A stretch of DNA of 64,000 bases, from contig JBAZMK010000001.1 of the NCBI GenBank assembly GCA_041649755.1, positions 66,826-130,825 on the forward strand, written 5' to 3'. Shown piece after piece: positions 4,740-29,973 of the stretch. Numbering within the stretch: the stretch's first letter is position 1; every line of letters starts with the position of its first letter. The position numbers and the translations under genes are program-made. The notes beneath the pieces were generated by a model. That model was not told the origin of the DNA and did no database searches. It saw only the letters and a program-made list of their open reading frames with translations. The stretch comes from Candidatus Pacearchaeota archaeon (GTDB lineage Archaea > Nanobdellota > Nanobdellia > Pacearchaeales > GW2011-AR1).

Positions 4740-5783
4740 TTAGCAGACAACTTTTCCGTTTAAAATTTGTTCTCTTAAATTATTGATTTCTTCTTCTGTT
4801 TTTTTGGCTCTACCCTTGAGTAATTGTTCTAAATCTTTTGATTCTAATTCTAATATTCTCTTTAAATCTTTGAGTTCTCTTACTATCTGTGAAATCTCTT
4901 TGCTTGTAAGATTTAGATGTGATAGGAATCTGTATCCTTTCGGCATTATGTTCTCTTCAACAGGTTTTTCAAATATGAGACGAGAAATTGATTCTAGGTC
5001 TAAAATTCCTTCAAAAGTAAGATTTTCAAGAAGATTTACAGATTTTTTCAAAGATAATATTGAATAATCTCTAAGAAGTTCACTTTTTGTTTTTTCTATT
5101 CCTCTTAGAAGTTCCCTGTATCTCATCTGCATAACATTGCCTTCTTTTCCGAGTTCTGTAAAACTTTTTTTAATTGATTCTGAGATTTTCATTATCATTT
5201 CTGTTCTTTGGAGGACCTTGCAAACATCACCTACGGAAACGAGTTTTGACATTTCAAGGATGTTGAGGGTTCCTAATTGCTCGTCGAAAATTTCCCTTTG
5301 CTTTTCAAGAATCTGAAGGGTTGAACTAATCTCCCTTATTAATTCTTCTGTTGTTTTAAGATAATACTTTGAGTTTTGGAAATAAAGAGTTGTCTTTCTT
5401 TTTCTTTCTGAGATAGCGATGACAAAAGTTTTTGCCTGTTTTGCTATCCTTTCTGCAGCTTTATGGCGTGTTCCAGTTTCGTTAGTGTGTATGGAGTTGT
5501 CGGGAGTCATTAGTACATTTGCATAGAGAATTCTCTTAAAGTCATCTGAAATTATTATCCCCCCGTCCATTTTGCATAGTTCAAAGAGTTTTTGTGCTGT
5601 AAAACGGCAGTTAATCCTGAATCCTCCCTCAAAAAGCCCTTTTTCGTGAAGTTCGGGAGAATCAAAAACAATTATTGCTCCAAGGTCAGACCTTAAAAGG
5701 TCGTCTATCACATTTCTTAGTGTTGTTCCGGGGGAAACTATCTTTATTAAATCTATGAAGTTTTTCTCTTTTTCTGCAACCAT
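4740..5783 (-). CDS. disA: DisA-type diadenylate cyclase (DNA integrity scanning protein family)
   Basis: DAC domain motifs DGAIIV / DGGIIISDD and RHKAAERIAKQ (bacterial consensus GTRHRAA), helical linker and C-terminal helical region; 347 aa. Confidence 0.8.
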   Translation of the reverse strand: MVAEKEKNFIDLIKIVSPGTTLRNVIDDLLRSDLGAIIVFDSPELHEKGLFEGGFRINCRFTAQKLFELCKMDGGIIISDDFKRILYANVLMTPDNSIHTNETGTRHKAAERIAKQAKTFVIAISERKRKTTLYFQNSKYYLKTTEELIREISSTLQILEKQREIFDEQLGTLNILEMSKLVSVGDVCKVLQRTEMIMKISESIKKSFTELGKEGNVMQMRYRELLRGIEKTKSELLRDYSILSLKKSVNLLENLTFEGILDLESISRLIFEKPVEENIMPKGYRFLSHLNLTSKEISQIVRELKDLKRILELESKDLEQLLKGRAKKTEEEINNLREQILNGKVVC

Positions 5784-6307: not shown

Positions 6308-7303
6308 ATGAAATACATCTTAGGAATTGAGAGCACGGCGCATACTTTTGGAGTTGCTGTTGTGGATTTTGGGGGAAAGATTTTGTCTAATGTAAAAGAT
6401 GTTTACACGACTGAAAAGGGTGGGATGATTCCTATTGAAGTCAGAAAACATCACCAAAAAGTCTCTAAAGAATTGTACGAGCGTGCTTTGAAGGAGGCTA
6501 TGATTAACGAAGCGGATATTGAGGCTGTTGCTTTTTCTAATGCTCCGGGACTTGCACCTTGTTTGCTGGAAGGGATGAAATTTTCTAAAGATACTGCGAA
6601 AAAATTAGGTATACCTGTTGTTTGCGTCAATCATTGCATTGCCCATTTAGAAATTGGGGAGACAACTGGGGCAAAGGACCCTGTTCTGCTTTACGCGAGT
6701 GGAGCAAACACACAAGTAATTGCTTATGAGGCTGGGAAGTATAGAGTTTTTGGCGAGACTCTTGATTTAGGGGTGGGAAATTTCATTGACACTATCGCTA
6801 GATATTTGGGGTTGGGTTTTCCTGGTGGACCAAAGATACAAAAGATGGCGGAAGAATATGAAAACAAAAGTGAAATTATTGATTTGCCTTACTCTGTTAA
6901 AGGAATGGATGTCGCATTTTCGGGTTTGCAGACAAAAATCAAGAATTTAGTTGACAAAAAAGAGGATTTAAGGAAGATAGCTTATTCTATGCAGGAAACT
7001 ATTTTTGCTATGCTTGTTGAAGTTGCTGAAAGGGCTCTGGCACACACTGGGAAAAAAGAACTTCTGCTTGGGGGAGGAGTTGCTTGCAACAGCAGATTGC
7101 AAGAAATGTGCAAGAAAATGTGTGATGATAGGGGTGTGAAGTTTTTCTGTCCAAACAGAAGTTTACTTGTGGATAATGCGGGGATGATAGGGTATCTTGG
7201 ATTAAAAATGTTTAAGGAAGGGTTGTTTGAGGGAGATTTAAACAAAGCAGATATAAAACCTAGAGAAAGGACGGACGATGTTGTGGTTGGGTGGAGAGTT
7301 TAG
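6308..7303 (+). CDS. kae1: tRNA N6-adenosine threonylcarbamoyltransferase Kae1
   Basis: ASKHA fold; metal-binding HCIAHLE motif; YASGANTQ; stand-alone, not fused to Bud32. Confidence 0.9.
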   Translation: MKYILGIESTAHTFGVAVVDFGGKILSNVKDVYTTEKGGMIPIEVRKHHQKVSKELYERALKEAMINEADIEAVAFSNAPGLAPCLLEGMKFSKDTAKKLGIPVVCVNHCIAHLEIGETTGAKDPVLLYASGANTQVIAYEAGKYRVFGETLDLGVGNFIDTIARYLGLGFPGGPKIQKMAEEYENKSEIIDLPYSVKGMDVAFSGLQTKIKNLVDKKEDLRKIAYSMQETIFAMLVEVAERALAHTGKKELLLGGGVACNSRLQEMCKKMCDDRGVKFFCPNRSLLVDNAGMIGYLGLKMFKEGLFEGDLNKADIKPRERTDDVVVGWRV

Positions 7304-24639: not shown

Positions 24640-24963
24640 CTATATCGCTAAATAAAGAAACTTGGGACCTCCCCAAGTGTGAGGGGAATCCTGTGACCTT
24701 TTAACTGAAGTCAAAACTTTTTTACCTTTTACCATCGCGTCTATTATCCGAATTACCTCCCCTGACAAGCCATTATCTCCTAAAGAACCAATTATATGAT
24801 TATATAAGGCATAATAGGAAACCCAGTTATGTCCATCAAACCCTGCACGCCCAAGAGAAGGGTCAGGAGAATGTATATCATTAAAATCAGGTCTTTCTAA
24901 ATAGTCAATAACCACTTTTTCAATATCAGAATCACTTACAGTTCTACTTCCTGAAGGCTCCAT
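24640..24963 (-). CDS. Hypothetical protein (107 aa)
   Basis: ORF only. Confidence 0.35.
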   Translation of the reverse strand: MEPSGSRTVSDSDIEKVVIDYLERPDFNDIHSPDPSLGRAGFDGHNWVSYYALYNHIIGSLGDNGLSGEVIRIIDAMVKGKKVLTSVKRSQDSPHTWGGPKFLYLAI

Positions 24964-25013
24964 ATAGTTAGATAGTTAGGATATTTTTAAGTATTTGTGT
25001 GCTTAATAAGTAA

Positions 25014-25021
25014 TTTTATAA
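25014..25021 (+). promoter_or_regulatory. TATA box (ttttataa) centred about 26 nt upstream of the tRNA 5' end
   Basis: Canonical archaeal TATA-to-TSS spacing. Confidence 0.4.
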
Positions 25022-25042
25022 ACAATAATTTTGTAGGGTTTA

Positions 25043-25159
25043 GGTGAGCCCGTAGCTCAGCCAGGTAGAGCACTGCTCTTATATGACTGCGATTCAATGA
25101 ATTGTAGATTTTCTTCAGTCGAAGGAAGGCAGGGGTCCTGGGTTCAAATCCCAGCGGGC
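25043..25159 (+). tRNA. tRNA with a 43-nt intron at the canonical 37/38 position; anticodon reads TAT, so tRNA-Ile(UAU)
   Basis: Hand-folded cloverleaf: acceptor GAGCCCG/CGGGCTC, D stem GCTC/GAGC with GG in the loop, anticodon stem CTGCT/GGCAG, T stem CTGGG/CCCAG with TTCAAAT loop, discriminator A, no encoded CCA; exon 1 25043-25080, intron 25081-25123, exon 2 25124-25159. Confidence 0.75.
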
Positions 25160-25162
25160 TCA

Positions 25163-25190
25163 TTCAGTCCTCCTGCCTGGCAGGAGTCCA
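25163..25190 (+). terminator. GC-rich inverted repeat (agtcctcctgcc / ggcaggagtcc) immediately 3' of the tRNA
   Basis: Near-perfect palindrome that is GC-rich against AT-rich flanks; function (terminator or processing signal) inferred. Confidence 0.3.
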
Positions 25191-25328
25191 GCTCACAATC
25201 ATGTCTTGCTTAAAATAGTTTAAATACAAGAGAACGCAAGACCAAATTGTTCTACTCACAATCATGCCTCAAGAGGGCTCGTCTTTCTTAACCCCAATAT
25301 TTAAAAACCAATTTTCAATGATTATTTG

Positions 25329-25895
25329 ATGGGGACTACAAAGTACTTAAGAGAAGCTTGGAAAAAACCAGATGTAAAAGTCCTTAGAGAAAGGATGATT
25401 GAATGGAGAAAAGGCGAATCAGTTGTAAGAGTAGAAAAACCTCTAAGACTTGACAGAGCAAGAAATCTTGGTTACAAGGCAAAAAAAGGAGTAGTTATCG
25501 TTAGGATTAGGATTAAAAGAGGGGGGCACAAGAGAACTAGACCTTACAAAGCGAGAAGGACAAAAAGACTTCATATCAGAAAGAACCTTACTATGAATTA
25601 TAAAGAAATCGCAGAACAAAGAGTTGCGAGAAAATTCACAAATATGGAAGTTTTAAACTCCTATGTGGTTGGAAGAGATGGGATAAATTATTTTTACGAA
25701 GTGATTTTAGTTGACAGAAATGCTCCTGAAATAAAAACAGACAAGGAATTATCAAGATTTGTAAAATCACCAAAGAGAAGGGCTTTAAGAGGTCTTACAA
25801 GTGCAGGTAAAAAAGCAAGAGGGTTAAGAAACTCCCTAATTAAGTCACCAAAAGTTAGACCAAGTCTTAGAGCAAACAGAAGGCAAGGCAATTAG
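25329..25895 (+). CDS. rpl15e: Ribosomal protein L15e
   Basis: N-terminus GTTKYLREAWKKPDV and basic composition of L15e; start likely ATG 25329. Confidence 0.9.
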   Translation: MGTTKYLREAWKKPDVKVLRERMIEWRKGESVVRVEKPLRLDRARNLGYKAKKGVVIVRIRIKRGGHKRTRPYKARRTKRLHIRKNLTMNYKEIAEQRVARKFTNMEVLNSYVVGRDGINYFYEVILVDRNAPEIKTDKELSRFVKSPKRRALRGLTSAGKKARGLRNSLIKSPKVRPSLRANRRQGN

Positions 25896-28623: not shown

Positions 28624-29973
28624 ATGATTAAACCAACGAAAACCATTTCAGGGGTTGCGCCTGTTGCTGTAATGCTCCCACCTAGAAAGTGTCCTCATGG
28701 GGCTTGCCTTTATTGTCCAACGCTTAATGCCCCCCAATCATATACTCCTGAAAGTCCTGCCGTTCTTAGGGCAAAATCCTGCGATTATGACCCGTATAAT
28801 CAGGTTAGGGCAAGAATAAAAATGCTGAAAGAGATGGGACATTCCGTGGGGAAGATAGAACTTATAATTATGGGGGGGACTTTTCTCGCTTATCCGAGAG
28901 ATTTTCAGATTGATTTTATAAAAAGTTGTTATGATGCCTTAAATGAAAAGAAATCTAAGTCGCTTGAAAAAGCGAAGAAATTTAATGAAACAGCAAAATA
29001 CCGATGTACTGCGCTTTGTATTGAAACTCGTCCAGATTTTTGTACTGAGGTGCATATAAAAGATATGCTTATGTTTGGAGCTACAAGGGTTGAATTGGGA
29101 GTTCAGGCAATAGATGATGAAATTTATGTTAAAGTTAACAGGGGACACAGAGTTTCAGATGTTATTGGGGCAACAAGAAGGTTGAAAAAAGCAGGATTTA
29201 AGATAGGATACCACTTAATGCCCGGAATCCCGGGGAGTAATGTTAAAAAGGATTTGAAGATGTTTAAGAGAATATTTTCTTCAAAAGACTTCAGACCAGA
29301 CCAAATTAAAATTTATCCCTGTCAGGTTTTGAAAGGGTCTGGATTAGAGAATCTTTATTATAATAAAGAATATGTTCCCTATACAAAAGAAGATACAAAG
29401 AGGCTTTTAATAAAAATGATGAAGTTAACTCCGAGATACTGCAGGATAATGAGAATAATGCGTGAGATTCCTCCGTTTTATTTAGTCTCTGGGATAAAAA
29501 ATATTGATTTAAGAAAGGAAGTTGAAGAAGAAATAAGAAAGAAAAAATTTAAAATAAAAGAGATTCGGTTTCGGGAAATTGGTTTTGCTTTAAGAGATAA
29601 GAGAGTTATTAAAGGAAATTTAGGAATAAGAGTTAAAAAATATTCTGCTTCCGATGGAAAGGAGTACTTTATAGAGGCTGTGAATGGCGATGACCTCCTT
29701 TTTGGGCTTCTTCGTTTAAGAATTGAAAAAAAAAGAAAACTTCCTGCAATGATTAGAGAGTTGCATGTTTATGGACCTACATTAGACGTAGGCAAGAAAG
29801 CAACAGAAGAATATCAGCACAGAGGCCTTGGAAGAGAATTATTAAAGAAGGCGGAGTCAATAGTTAAAAGAGGAAGTGTAAAGATAATCGCAGGAGTTGG
29901 TGTTAGAGAGTACTATAAGAATTTTGGATATAATTTAGATAAAGAAGGAATTTATATGGAAAAATTACTCTGA
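28624..29973 (+). CDS. elp3: Elp3 homologue (radical SAM + GNAT; tRNA wobble uridine modification)
   Basis: Radical SAM cluster CPHGACLYCP, TRPD motif, C-terminal GNAT domain (HRGLGRELL). Confidence 0.9.
   Translation: MIKPTKTISGVAPVAVMLPPRKCPHGACLYCPTLNAPQSYTPESPAVLRAKSCDYDPYNQVRARIKMLKEMGHSVGKIELIIMGGTFLAYPRDFQIDFIKSCYDALNEKKSKSLEKAKKFNETAKYRCTALCIETRPDFCTEVHIKDMLMFGATRVELGVQAIDDEIYVKVNRGHRVSDVIGATRRLKKAGFKIGYHLMPGIPGSNVKKDLKMFKRIFSSKDFRPDQIKIYPCQVLKGSGLENLYYNKEYVPYTKEDTKRLLIKMMKLTPRYCRIMRIMREIPPFYLVSGIKNIDLRKEVEEEIRKKKFKIKEIRFREIGFALRDKRVIKGNLGIRVKKYSASDGKEYFIEAVNGDDLLFGLLRLRIEKKRKLPAMIRELHVYGPTLDVGKKATEEYQHRGLGRELLKKAESIVKRGSVKIIAGVGVREYYKNFGYNLDKEGIYMEKLL

Follow-up and report, generated by a model that had tools for sequence, protein, structure and literature searches.

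The tRNA gene and its genomic setting

The window analysed here, by which we mean the whole stretch of 64,000 nucleotides whose positions are used throughout, carries an intron-containing tRNA gene at 25046–25162 on the forward strand. The Rfam tRNA model RF00005 scores 56.7 bits over this interval (gathering score 29; E = 1.4e-9 in the 64-kb window); the alignment covers model positions 1–71 of 71 and places a 44-nt insertion within the anticodon loop. With introns allowed, ARAGORN calls one confident gene in the window, a tRNA-Ile(tat) with a 43-nt intron. The same program run without intron mode returned no tRNA; this negative was discarded as a limit of the tool, because the gene carries an intron and the intron-mode run recovers it. 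The initial annotation had located the gene at 25043–25159, and it was right about the gene but not about its ends, as that interval begins 3 nt before the gene and ends 3 nt before its discriminator base.

The 5' exon (25046–25083, forward strand; tRNA positions 1–37) is delimited by the Rfam alignment, the intron-mode call of ARAGORN and the covariation of the cloverleaf, and comprises the acceptor strand GAGCCCG, the D arm, the anticodon stem strand CTGCT and the loop nucleotides C32, U33, U34, A35, U36 and A37, the last of which lies at 25083. The anticodon TAT (UAU in the transcript; positions 34–36) occupies 25080–25082 on the same strand according to both ARAGORN and the Rfam alignment, and it is invariant in 26 of 26 distinct homologous anticodon arms. 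The 3' exon (25127–25162, forward strand; positions 38–73), defined by ARAGORN, the Rfam alignment and cloverleaf covariation, begins with A38 at 25127 and continues with the anticodon stem strand GGCAG, the variable loop GGGTC, the T arm CTGGG-TTCAAAT-CCCAG, the acceptor strand CGGGCTC and the discriminator A73. CCA is not encoded, and TTC lies directly 3' of the gene.

Removal of the intron leaves a 7-nt anticodon loop, CUUAUAA, in which U33 and a purine at position 37 are present and whose CTTATA portion is invariant across 26 distinct homologues. Spliced homologues share a consensus cloverleaf of 23 pairs (RNAalifold, 17 distinct sequences), and in 12 of these both partners have changed. 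The canonical cloverleaf proposed in the initial annotation is thus borne out by the agreement of Rfam and ARAGORN and by this covariation, and the proposed identity as an AUA-decoding tRNA-Ile with a UAU anticodon is upheld by the intron-mode call, the Rfam alignment and the conservation among homologues. Candidate isoleucine identity elements, by comparison with E. coli (A73, C4–G69 and U12–A23), are all present in the window tRNA and serve as a lead. At one homologous locus, L060, an adjoining tRNA-Val shares the same acceptor stem, and the isoleucine assignment therefore rests on the anticodon.

Upstream of the gene, a TATA-like box, TTTTATAAA, was read from the sequence at 25014–25022 (forward strand). 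Its centre lies about 28 nt upstream of the first nucleotide of the mature tRNA, close to the distance of about 26 nt that had been given for a TATA box before, and it has a purine-rich, BRE-like stretch on its 5' side. At the corresponding offset of −33 to −25, most loci of the family have TTTATATA or TTTAAATA. The box fits an archaeal TATA promoter and is presumably active.

The window is archaeal, encoding aEF-2, a threonyl-tRNA synthetase (ThrRS) with the archaeal editing domain and the ribosomal protein L15e. NCBI lists its proteins (MFA5060759, MFA5060786 and MFA5060793 among those of the bin) under Candidatus Pacearchaeota archaeon, on a contig of 203,764 bp, and the same DNA is present in the metagenome assemblies ERZ27247363 and SRR8542065. 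The neighbours of the tRNA gene are housekeeping genes, namely those for L15e, a YchF-like GTPase and aminoacyl-tRNA synthetases. Two further genes bear on tRNA modification: that for Kae1, the catalytic subunit of KEOPS, at 6308–7303, and that for an Elp3 homologue at 28624–29973 (TIGR01211, 538 bits), 3.5 kb downstream of the tRNA gene.

AUA decoding in the host

AUA and AUG are the sole purine-ending codon pair of the standard code that is split between two amino acids, and the usual solution is a modified cytidine, which is lysidine in bacteria and agmatidine in archaea. The demand for AUA decoding in the host is high. Of the 17,643 codons in 44 window ORFs, 539 are AUA (30.6 per 1000). 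This makes it the ninth commonest codon, with 34% of all isoleucine codons and nearly twice the frequency of AUG. Because AUA is used this heavily in a genome of 34.5% G+C, an efficient dedicated AUA decoder should be indispensable.

Besides tRNA-Ile(UAU), the only tRNAs encoded in the window and its flanks are tRNA-Gly(CCC) and tRNA-Thr(GGU). No tRNA(CAU) was found in the window and about 15 kb of flanking sequence, and no TiaS-type domain was found in window ORFs of at least 120 aa or in the called genes of the 10-kb flanks. EndA and RtcB were likewise absent from the window ORFs of at least 120 aa and from the 10-kb flanks. As the search for TiaS and tRNA(CAU) spanned about 79 kb of a genome of probably 0.6–1 Mb, TiaS-independent decoding is something we infer, and we do so because of published precedent: ARMAN-2, -4 and -5 possess a tRNA-Ile(UAU) but neither tRNA-Ile(CAU) nor TiaS (PMC3239211), and Nanoarchaeum and Korarchaeum encode UAU without TiaS (PMC3575796, PMC3895270, PMC6000648). 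By this analogy, the tRNA-Ile(UAU) of the window most likely replaces tRNA-Ile2(CAU) together with the agmatidine synthetase TiaS.

The main competitor to replacement is a supplementary role, in which the organism would also have kept TiaS and tRNA-Ile2(CAU) and AUA decoding would not be TiaS-independent. Such an arrangement would suit the high AUA demand, it has a parallel in some Firmicutes, where tilS coexists with a tRNA-Ile(TAT) gene (PMC3575796), and the missing components could be encoded beyond the window and its roughly 15 kb of searched flanks. We nevertheless consider it unlikely: in every archaeon studied, that is, ARMAN-2, -4 and -5, Nanoarchaeum and Korarchaeum, a UAU anticodon goes together with the loss of TiaS and tRNA-Ile(CAU) (PMC3239211, PMC3575796, PMC6000648), DPANN genomes are strongly reduced, and the TiaS domain is absent from the window ORFs of at least 120 aa and the called flanking genes.

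Intron and splice motif

The intron occupies 25084–25126 on the forward strand and is placed at the canonical 37/38 position by ARAGORN and by an exon-matching parse. Homologous introns in the window's family range from 43 to 121 nt and lie at the same position. A 43-nt intron after position 37 had been described in the initial annotation, and this insertion point is reproduced by ARAGORN and by the Rfam covariance model. The splice junction can also be drawn one base to the left (an A|A ambiguity), which leaves the mature sequence unchanged.

In its strict form, the archaeal bulge–helix–bulge (BHB) motif follows a 3-4-3 rule, with two 3-nt bulges on opposite strands, a 4-bp helix between them, a further helix on either side and the splice sites inside the bulges (PMC3239211). 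The junctions of the window gene form a near-strict 3-4-3 hBHBh' motif with one non-Watson–Crick pair. Its 5' half (25078–25089, forward strand), a hand model tested on the homologue alignment, consists of the central-helix strand C32–A35 (25078–25081), the bulge U36 A37 | U (25082–25084, with the cut after 25083) and the inner-helix strand GACTG (25085–25089). Its 3' half (25116–25127, forward strand), which follows from the exon-matching parse and the homologue alignment, consists of the inner-helix strand CAGTC (25116–25120), the central-helix strand GAAG (25121–25124) and the bulge G A | A38 (25125–25127, with the cut after 25126). The outer helix is the 5-bp anticodon stem CUGCU/GGCAG and the inner helix is the 5-bp GACUG/CAGUC. 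The central helix pairs C32–G, U33–A and U34–A and contains an A35·G mismatch (G25121). The placement of the cut within each bulge is assumed; it yields the published canonical intron length of 25 nt in the Micrarchaeota locus L063.

To test the model, we used 33 archaeal homologues with an intron, taken from GTDB genomes and metagenomes, which provide 26 distinct anticodon arms; the alignments left out the Aenigmatarchaeota loci L050, L067 and L103 (long or multiple insertions), the partial locus L123 and the contig-end locus L102. Under the model, 90.4% of the cells are paired, compared with 33–47% when the 3' partners are slid by 1–3 columns. Both partners have changed in nine of the pairs, and the covariation score of the real alignment was not attained in any of 500 shuffles. 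The central helix is 95% paired among the homologues, and both the outer and the inner helix show both-side changes, the latter in all five of its pairs. An RNAalifold consensus of 16 family members, which is compatible with the BHB, retains the anticodon stem and 3 bp of the inner helix together with a nested hairpin, termed hp1 below. Most homologues carry UAAG opposite C32–A35 and so form four Watson–Crick pairs, and the G opposite A35 is a feature that the window shares with its nearest relatives (L015, L036, L124, L130 and L142). The BHB at the exon–intron junctions, whose evaluation the initial annotation had suggested, is therefore found in near-strict 3-4-3 form and covaries in the homologues. 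Because of this BHB pairing and covariation, and of the compensatory changes in the cloverleaf of the homologues, we regard the intron position and the UAU anticodon read from the sequence as secure.

Placement or processing of the intron at some other site, by which the mature anticodon would not be UAU and the tRNA would be another isoacceptor, is very improbable. It could draw on the mismatch in the central helix and on the fact that the thermodynamically preferred fold of the precursor lacks the BHB. Against this, ARAGORN and the Rfam model put the insertion at 37/38 independently of each other, the sole ambiguity is the 1-nt A|A shift that keeps the mature sequence the same, the 3-4-3 geometry and the CTTATA loop are invariant in the 26 distinct homologues with covarying flanking helices, and any other cut would break the 7-nt anticodon loop or the 5-bp stem.

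Hairpins within the intron

Two hairpins are predicted within the intron. The first, hp1 (CUGCGAUUC / GAAUUGUAG; 25087–25107, forward strand), was obtained with both RNAfold and RNAalifold, is nested inside the inner helix and has changes on both sides in six of its seven pairs in the RNAalifold consensus of the 16 family members. The second, hp2 (UUUCUUC, loop AGUC, GAAGGA plus A38; 25110–25127, forward strand), comes from the minimum-free-energy fold. In it, the pyrimidine-rich strand UUUCUUC (25110–25116) complements GAAGGA|A (25121–25127), that is, the central-helix strand, the bulge and nucleotide 38, so that the predicted hp2 excludes the BHB fold and would sequester the 3' splice site. 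When run without constraints, RNAfold gave no cloverleaf for the precursor; such a result is uninformative where an intron is present, and constrained folds were therefore used. With the cloverleaf enforced in RNAfold, the fold with hp1 and hp2 reaches −44.4 kcal/mol and the BHB fold −37.2 kcal/mol, a gap of 7.2 kcal/mol. The gap in favour of hp2 ranges from 1.6 to 11.2 kcal/mol within the window's family and from 0.1 to 1.7 kcal/mol in the Micrarchaeota and Altiarchaeota versions.

Hairpins resembling hp2 are found in most members of the window's family and are absent from the Micrarchaeota, Altiarchaeota and Asgard versions. Their strand pairs differ between subgroups (UUUCUUC/GAAGGAA, AUUCUUC/GAAGAAU, UUCUUAG/CUAAGAA, CUCACU/AGUGAG and CUCUCU/AGAGAG) and, as sequences, look compensatory. 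Shuffles of individual sequences gave p of about 0.04–0.08 for the best cases, a common-column covariation test across the family failed because the register of the hairpin differs between subgroups, and hp2 is absent from the RNAalifold consensus of the 16 family members. For these three reasons, hp2 is kept here as a lead and is not claimed as a structure. Possible explanations are a folding trap, a property of the intron after its excision, and a side effect of two strands that both have to match one purine-rich segment.

A more far-reaching model, which we hold to be quite doubtful, is that the strand at 25110–25116 acts in the Pace- and Woesearchaeal introns as a decoy that vies with the anticodon loop for the bases around the 3' splice site (25121–25127), locks the precursor in an unsplicable form and makes splicing conditional. 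Such a decoy could keep the anticodon loop free until an intron-dependent modification of U34/U36 or A37 has taken place, in the manner of yeast Pus1, and conditional splicing would, if this were true, explain how UAU avoids AUG in the Pace-/Woesearchaeal family. To our knowledge, intron-dependent modification of the anticodon is undocumented for archaea. In a search with Rfam over 24800–25500 (E up to 1), the only RNA family recovered was tRNA, with no other family in the intron or trailer, and no box C/D-like motifs were seen by eye in either.

Distribution of UAU genes

A pattern scan of the GTDB species representatives for the D arm and the CTTATA loop returned at least 119 loci. Among the matches listed, at least 21 are archaeal, and they belong to Nanoarchaeota, Pacearchaeota, Woesearchaeota, Micrarchaeota, Aenigmatarchaeota, Iainarchaeota and Altiarchaeota, to three bins labelled 'archaeon' and to one bin of Promethearchaeota (Asgard); at least about 98 are bacterial, mostly from CPR/Patescibacteria and Streptomyces. 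An insertion after position 37 is present in 16 of the 21 archaeal matches listed, and the other five are intronless. Among the matches listed, the closest homologues of the window tRNA belong to bins that are labelled as Woesearchaeota, Pacearchaeota and Nanoarchaeota (L102, L036, L015 and L105). A pseudogene or integration-site remnant, that is, a decaying or mobile-element-borne tRNA copy in place of a working AUA decoder, is hardly credible here, for although several homologous loci have a 15–18-nt copy of the tRNA 3' end 77–96 nt downstream, as in an att-like integration footprint, neither another copy of the gene nor a repeat of its 3' end occurs in the window, the four stems are all intact in a gene that scores well above threshold, homologues differ by compensatory substitutions and have kept the promoter box, the gene lies among housekeeping genes, and no other AUA decoder was seen in the window and flanks. 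The 3'-terminal 22-mer of the tRNA had no match in a viral contig collection. We conclude that the locus is probably a functional, single-copy archaeal gene for a minor tRNA-Ile(UAU) of Candidatus Pacearchaeota (DPANN).

The statement in the initial annotation that an encoded UAU anticodon is known only from a few lineages is outdated, as the matches listed include at least seven named DPANN groups, one Asgard bin and many CPR bacteria. The host itself, being a Pacearchaeota member, falls within the DPANN radiation related to Nanoarchaeota, a lineage that was already named there. A 2018 survey of 167 archaeal genomes, which included almost no DPANN genomes, reported UAU from Korarchaeum and Nanoarchaeum alone (PMC6000648). 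In our literature search combining DPANN with agmatidine, agmatinylcytidine or TiaS, no paper was found that makes the link for DPANN as a whole. The scan suggests that in much of DPANN and CPR the UAU solution is general, well beyond two or three genomes.

Comparison with known systems

The nearest described counterpart is the tRNA-Ile(UAU) of ARMAN-2 (Micrarchaeum), whose precursor has a 25-nt intron at 37/38 and underwent correct cleavage in vitro (Fujishima et al., 2011; PMC3239211). Like the window gene, it belongs to a DPANN archaeon, encodes UAU directly and has a 37/38 intron in an hBHBh' motif in which C32–A35 pair with the 3' part of the intron, and it is likewise presumed to be the sole AUA decoder, replacing TiaS and tRNA-Ile(CAU). 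The Micrarchaeota homologues in our set (L023, L063, L066, L080 and L120) fit the BHB model, with an intron of 25 nt in L063. The window version differs from that of ARMAN-2 in its longer intron (43 nt) with the conserved internal hairpin hp1, in the A·G mismatch in place of one of four Watson–Crick pairs, in the competing hp2 (with a gap of 7.2 kcal/mol compared with 0.1–1.7 kcal/mol in the Micrarchaeota and Altiarchaeota versions) and in an acceptor stem that starts with GAGCCCG and not with GGGCCY.

Nanoarchaeum equitans and Korarchaeum cryptofilum resemble the window in encoding a tRNA-Ile(UAU) and, by their published descriptions, lack TiaS, and the Korarchaeum gene also contains an intron (PMC6000648); they differ in being thermophiles of other lineages. 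Eukaryotic tRNA-Ile(UAU), in which pseudouridylation that depends on the intron yields a ΨAΨ anticodon, has the same anticodon and a 37/38 intron as well. The eukaryotic endonuclease measures the distance from the mature domain without reading a BHB (PMC3239211). Among bacteria, the tRNA-Ile2(UAU) of Mycoplasma mobile and of CPR lineages is comparable in that UAU replaces a modified-cytidine system in reduced, AT-rich genomes. The bacterial genes differ in that they lack an intron, work with a bacterial-type IleRS and replace TilS.

Proposed maturation and decoding

From the sequence and these parallels, we infer that the window tRNA is transcribed, spliced, charged and used in decoding along the following lines. 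Transcription would start from the TATA/BRE promoter and be followed by end processing. The archaeal splicing endonuclease would then cut at the two bulges, after A37 (25083) and after 25126, an RtcB-type ligase would join the exons, and CCA would be added post-transcriptionally. A37 is probably converted into t6A by KEOPS. IleRS would charge the tRNA with isoleucine, and AUA would be read by pairing of U34 with A.

The scheme also calls for a means of avoiding the misreading of AUG. In haloarchaea, a U34 mutant of tRNA-Ile carried cnm5U, bound AUG and AUU in addition to AUA, and was a poor substrate for IleRS (PMC3895270). Since this mutant misreads and is poorly charged, a UAU anticodon would be expected to work only with an adapted IleRS and adapted decoding machinery. 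In M. mobile, U34 is reported to be unmodified (PMC3895270), and both IleRS and the ribosome are adapted (PMC3575796). In yeast, the intron of pre-tRNA-Ile(UAU) is required for the formation of Ψ34 and Ψ36 by Pus1, which is thought to stop the reading of AUG (PMC9602550, PMC3895270). Candidate mechanisms for the Pacearchaeota tRNA are modification of U34 involving the Elp3 homologue, pseudouridylation, and discrimination by the ribosome as in M. mobile. The predicted Elp3 homologue shows that a U34 pathway of the xm5U type exists in the organism, which does not imply that it acts on tRNA-Ile(UAU).

Significance for annotation and genome reduction

The tRNA-Ile(UAU) described here is a new example, from a lineage not yet discussed in this respect, of a kind of tRNA that was described between 2003 and 2011. 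The gene is ordinary for its own lineage, and it leaves the known mechanism unchanged. An encoded UAU anticodon marks lineages that have dropped the modified-cytidine system, and the window gene adds Pacearchaeota to the archaea that use the UAU solution. Because the scan lists UAU genes in DPANN groups, an Asgard bin and CPR bacteria, this solution is less rare than the initial annotation had assumed, and it bears on how genome reduction is thought about. The scan and the gene are also of use for annotation, because intron-blind tRNA finders miss such a gene and AUA then seems to have no decoder; standard tRNA software in archaeal mode would annotate it.

Predicted intron hairpin at the 3' splice site

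Folding of the intron-containing tRNA-Ile(UAU) predicts a hairpin (hp2; window 25110-25127) in which UUUCUUC pairs across an AGUC loop with GAAGGA and A38, and the bulge-helix-bulge fold that is competent for splicing is 7.2 kcal/mol less stable than this predicted alternative. As modelled, hp2 would bury the 3' splice site. Hairpins of this kind, with differing sequences, are found in most pacearchaeal and woesearchaeal homologues and in none of the other DPANN versions.

tRNA-Ile(UAU) in other archaea and in bacteria

Outside DPANN-type homologues, a 3.7-Mb scaffold of a Promethearchaeota metagenome-assembled genome (locus L020, JBGLND010000001.1) encodes a tRNA-Ile(UAU) whose 37/38 intron is 41 nt long, and eukaryotes likewise have a tRNA-Ile(UAU) that is interrupted at this position. 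The T loop of the tRNA from this Asgard-lineage bin is unusual (GGGATCGAGGCCC). In the tRNA-Ile(UAU) genes of the Aenigmatarchaeota loci L050, L067 and L103, which were mis-called by ARAGORN and did not fit the exon-matching parse, the insertion that follows position 37 is far longer, at about 60-130 nt. A second insertion appears to be present in the T arm of L067.

In bacteria, the GTDB species-representative scan (L003-L121), whose bacterial counts are to be read as 'at least', returned intronless tRNA-Ile(UAU) genes that are very common in CPR/Patescibacteria among the matches listed; many Streptomyces among the matches listed also carry an intronless gene, with the copy at L004 located on a plasmid. 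At two patescibacterial loci (L008 and L093), a truncated 5' half that extends through the anticodon loop is followed, after a gap of some 50-110 nt, by a complete copy; part of the gene is here duplicated in tandem.

Repeats and spacer sequences next to the gene

The 3' end of the tRNA is repeated downstream of its own gene at five homologous loci (L015, L036, L130, L136 and L139), 77-96 nt past the gene, and upstream at two others (L125 and L132), 24 nt before it. The copies are 15-18 nt long and exact, except at L130, where the copy is imperfect, with one mismatch in the last 14 nt. These att-like direct repeats suggest that small elements have repeatedly been integrated or excised at the tRNA-Ile(UAU) gene. 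L130 looks like L142, another near relative of the window tRNA, with an insert of this kind added. The window itself has no att-like repeat of the tRNA 3' end.

The 163-nt spacer between the window tRNA and the L15e gene (25163-25325) starts with a G+C-rich hairpin (CTCCTGC at 25170-25176, GCAGGAG at 25180-25186) and contains two copies of the 12-mer CTCACAATCATG, one at 25192-25203 and one at 25255-25266. Over roughly the first 25 nt, the spacer is similar to the trailer of L130, the closest homologue, with an alignment score of 39 against a mean of 22 and a maximum of 45 for shuffled sequences. No Rfam family matched the spacer.

Neighbouring genes

Genes for two enzymes that modify anticodon loops lie near the tRNA. 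One, 3.5 kb downstream of it, encodes an Elp3 homologue (28624-29973, + strand; TIGR01211, 538 bits), and the other encodes Kae1, a subunit of KEOPS (6308-7303, + strand). Elp3 is associated with xm5U-type chemistry at U34, and KEOPS/Kae1 with t6A37. Three aminoacyl-tRNA synthetases are also present in the window (a class II D/K/N type, a class I W/Y type and ThrRS). A DisA-type diadenylate cyclase with a DAC domain and DisA linker (4740-5783, - strand), a checkpoint or c-di-AMP protein that is typically bacterial, is carried by this archaeal genome. About 6 kb past the right end of the window, a reverse-transcriptase (RVT_1) gene (16082-17185 of L143, the DNA extending beyond that end) lies near tRNA-Gly(CCC) and tRNA-Thr(GGU).
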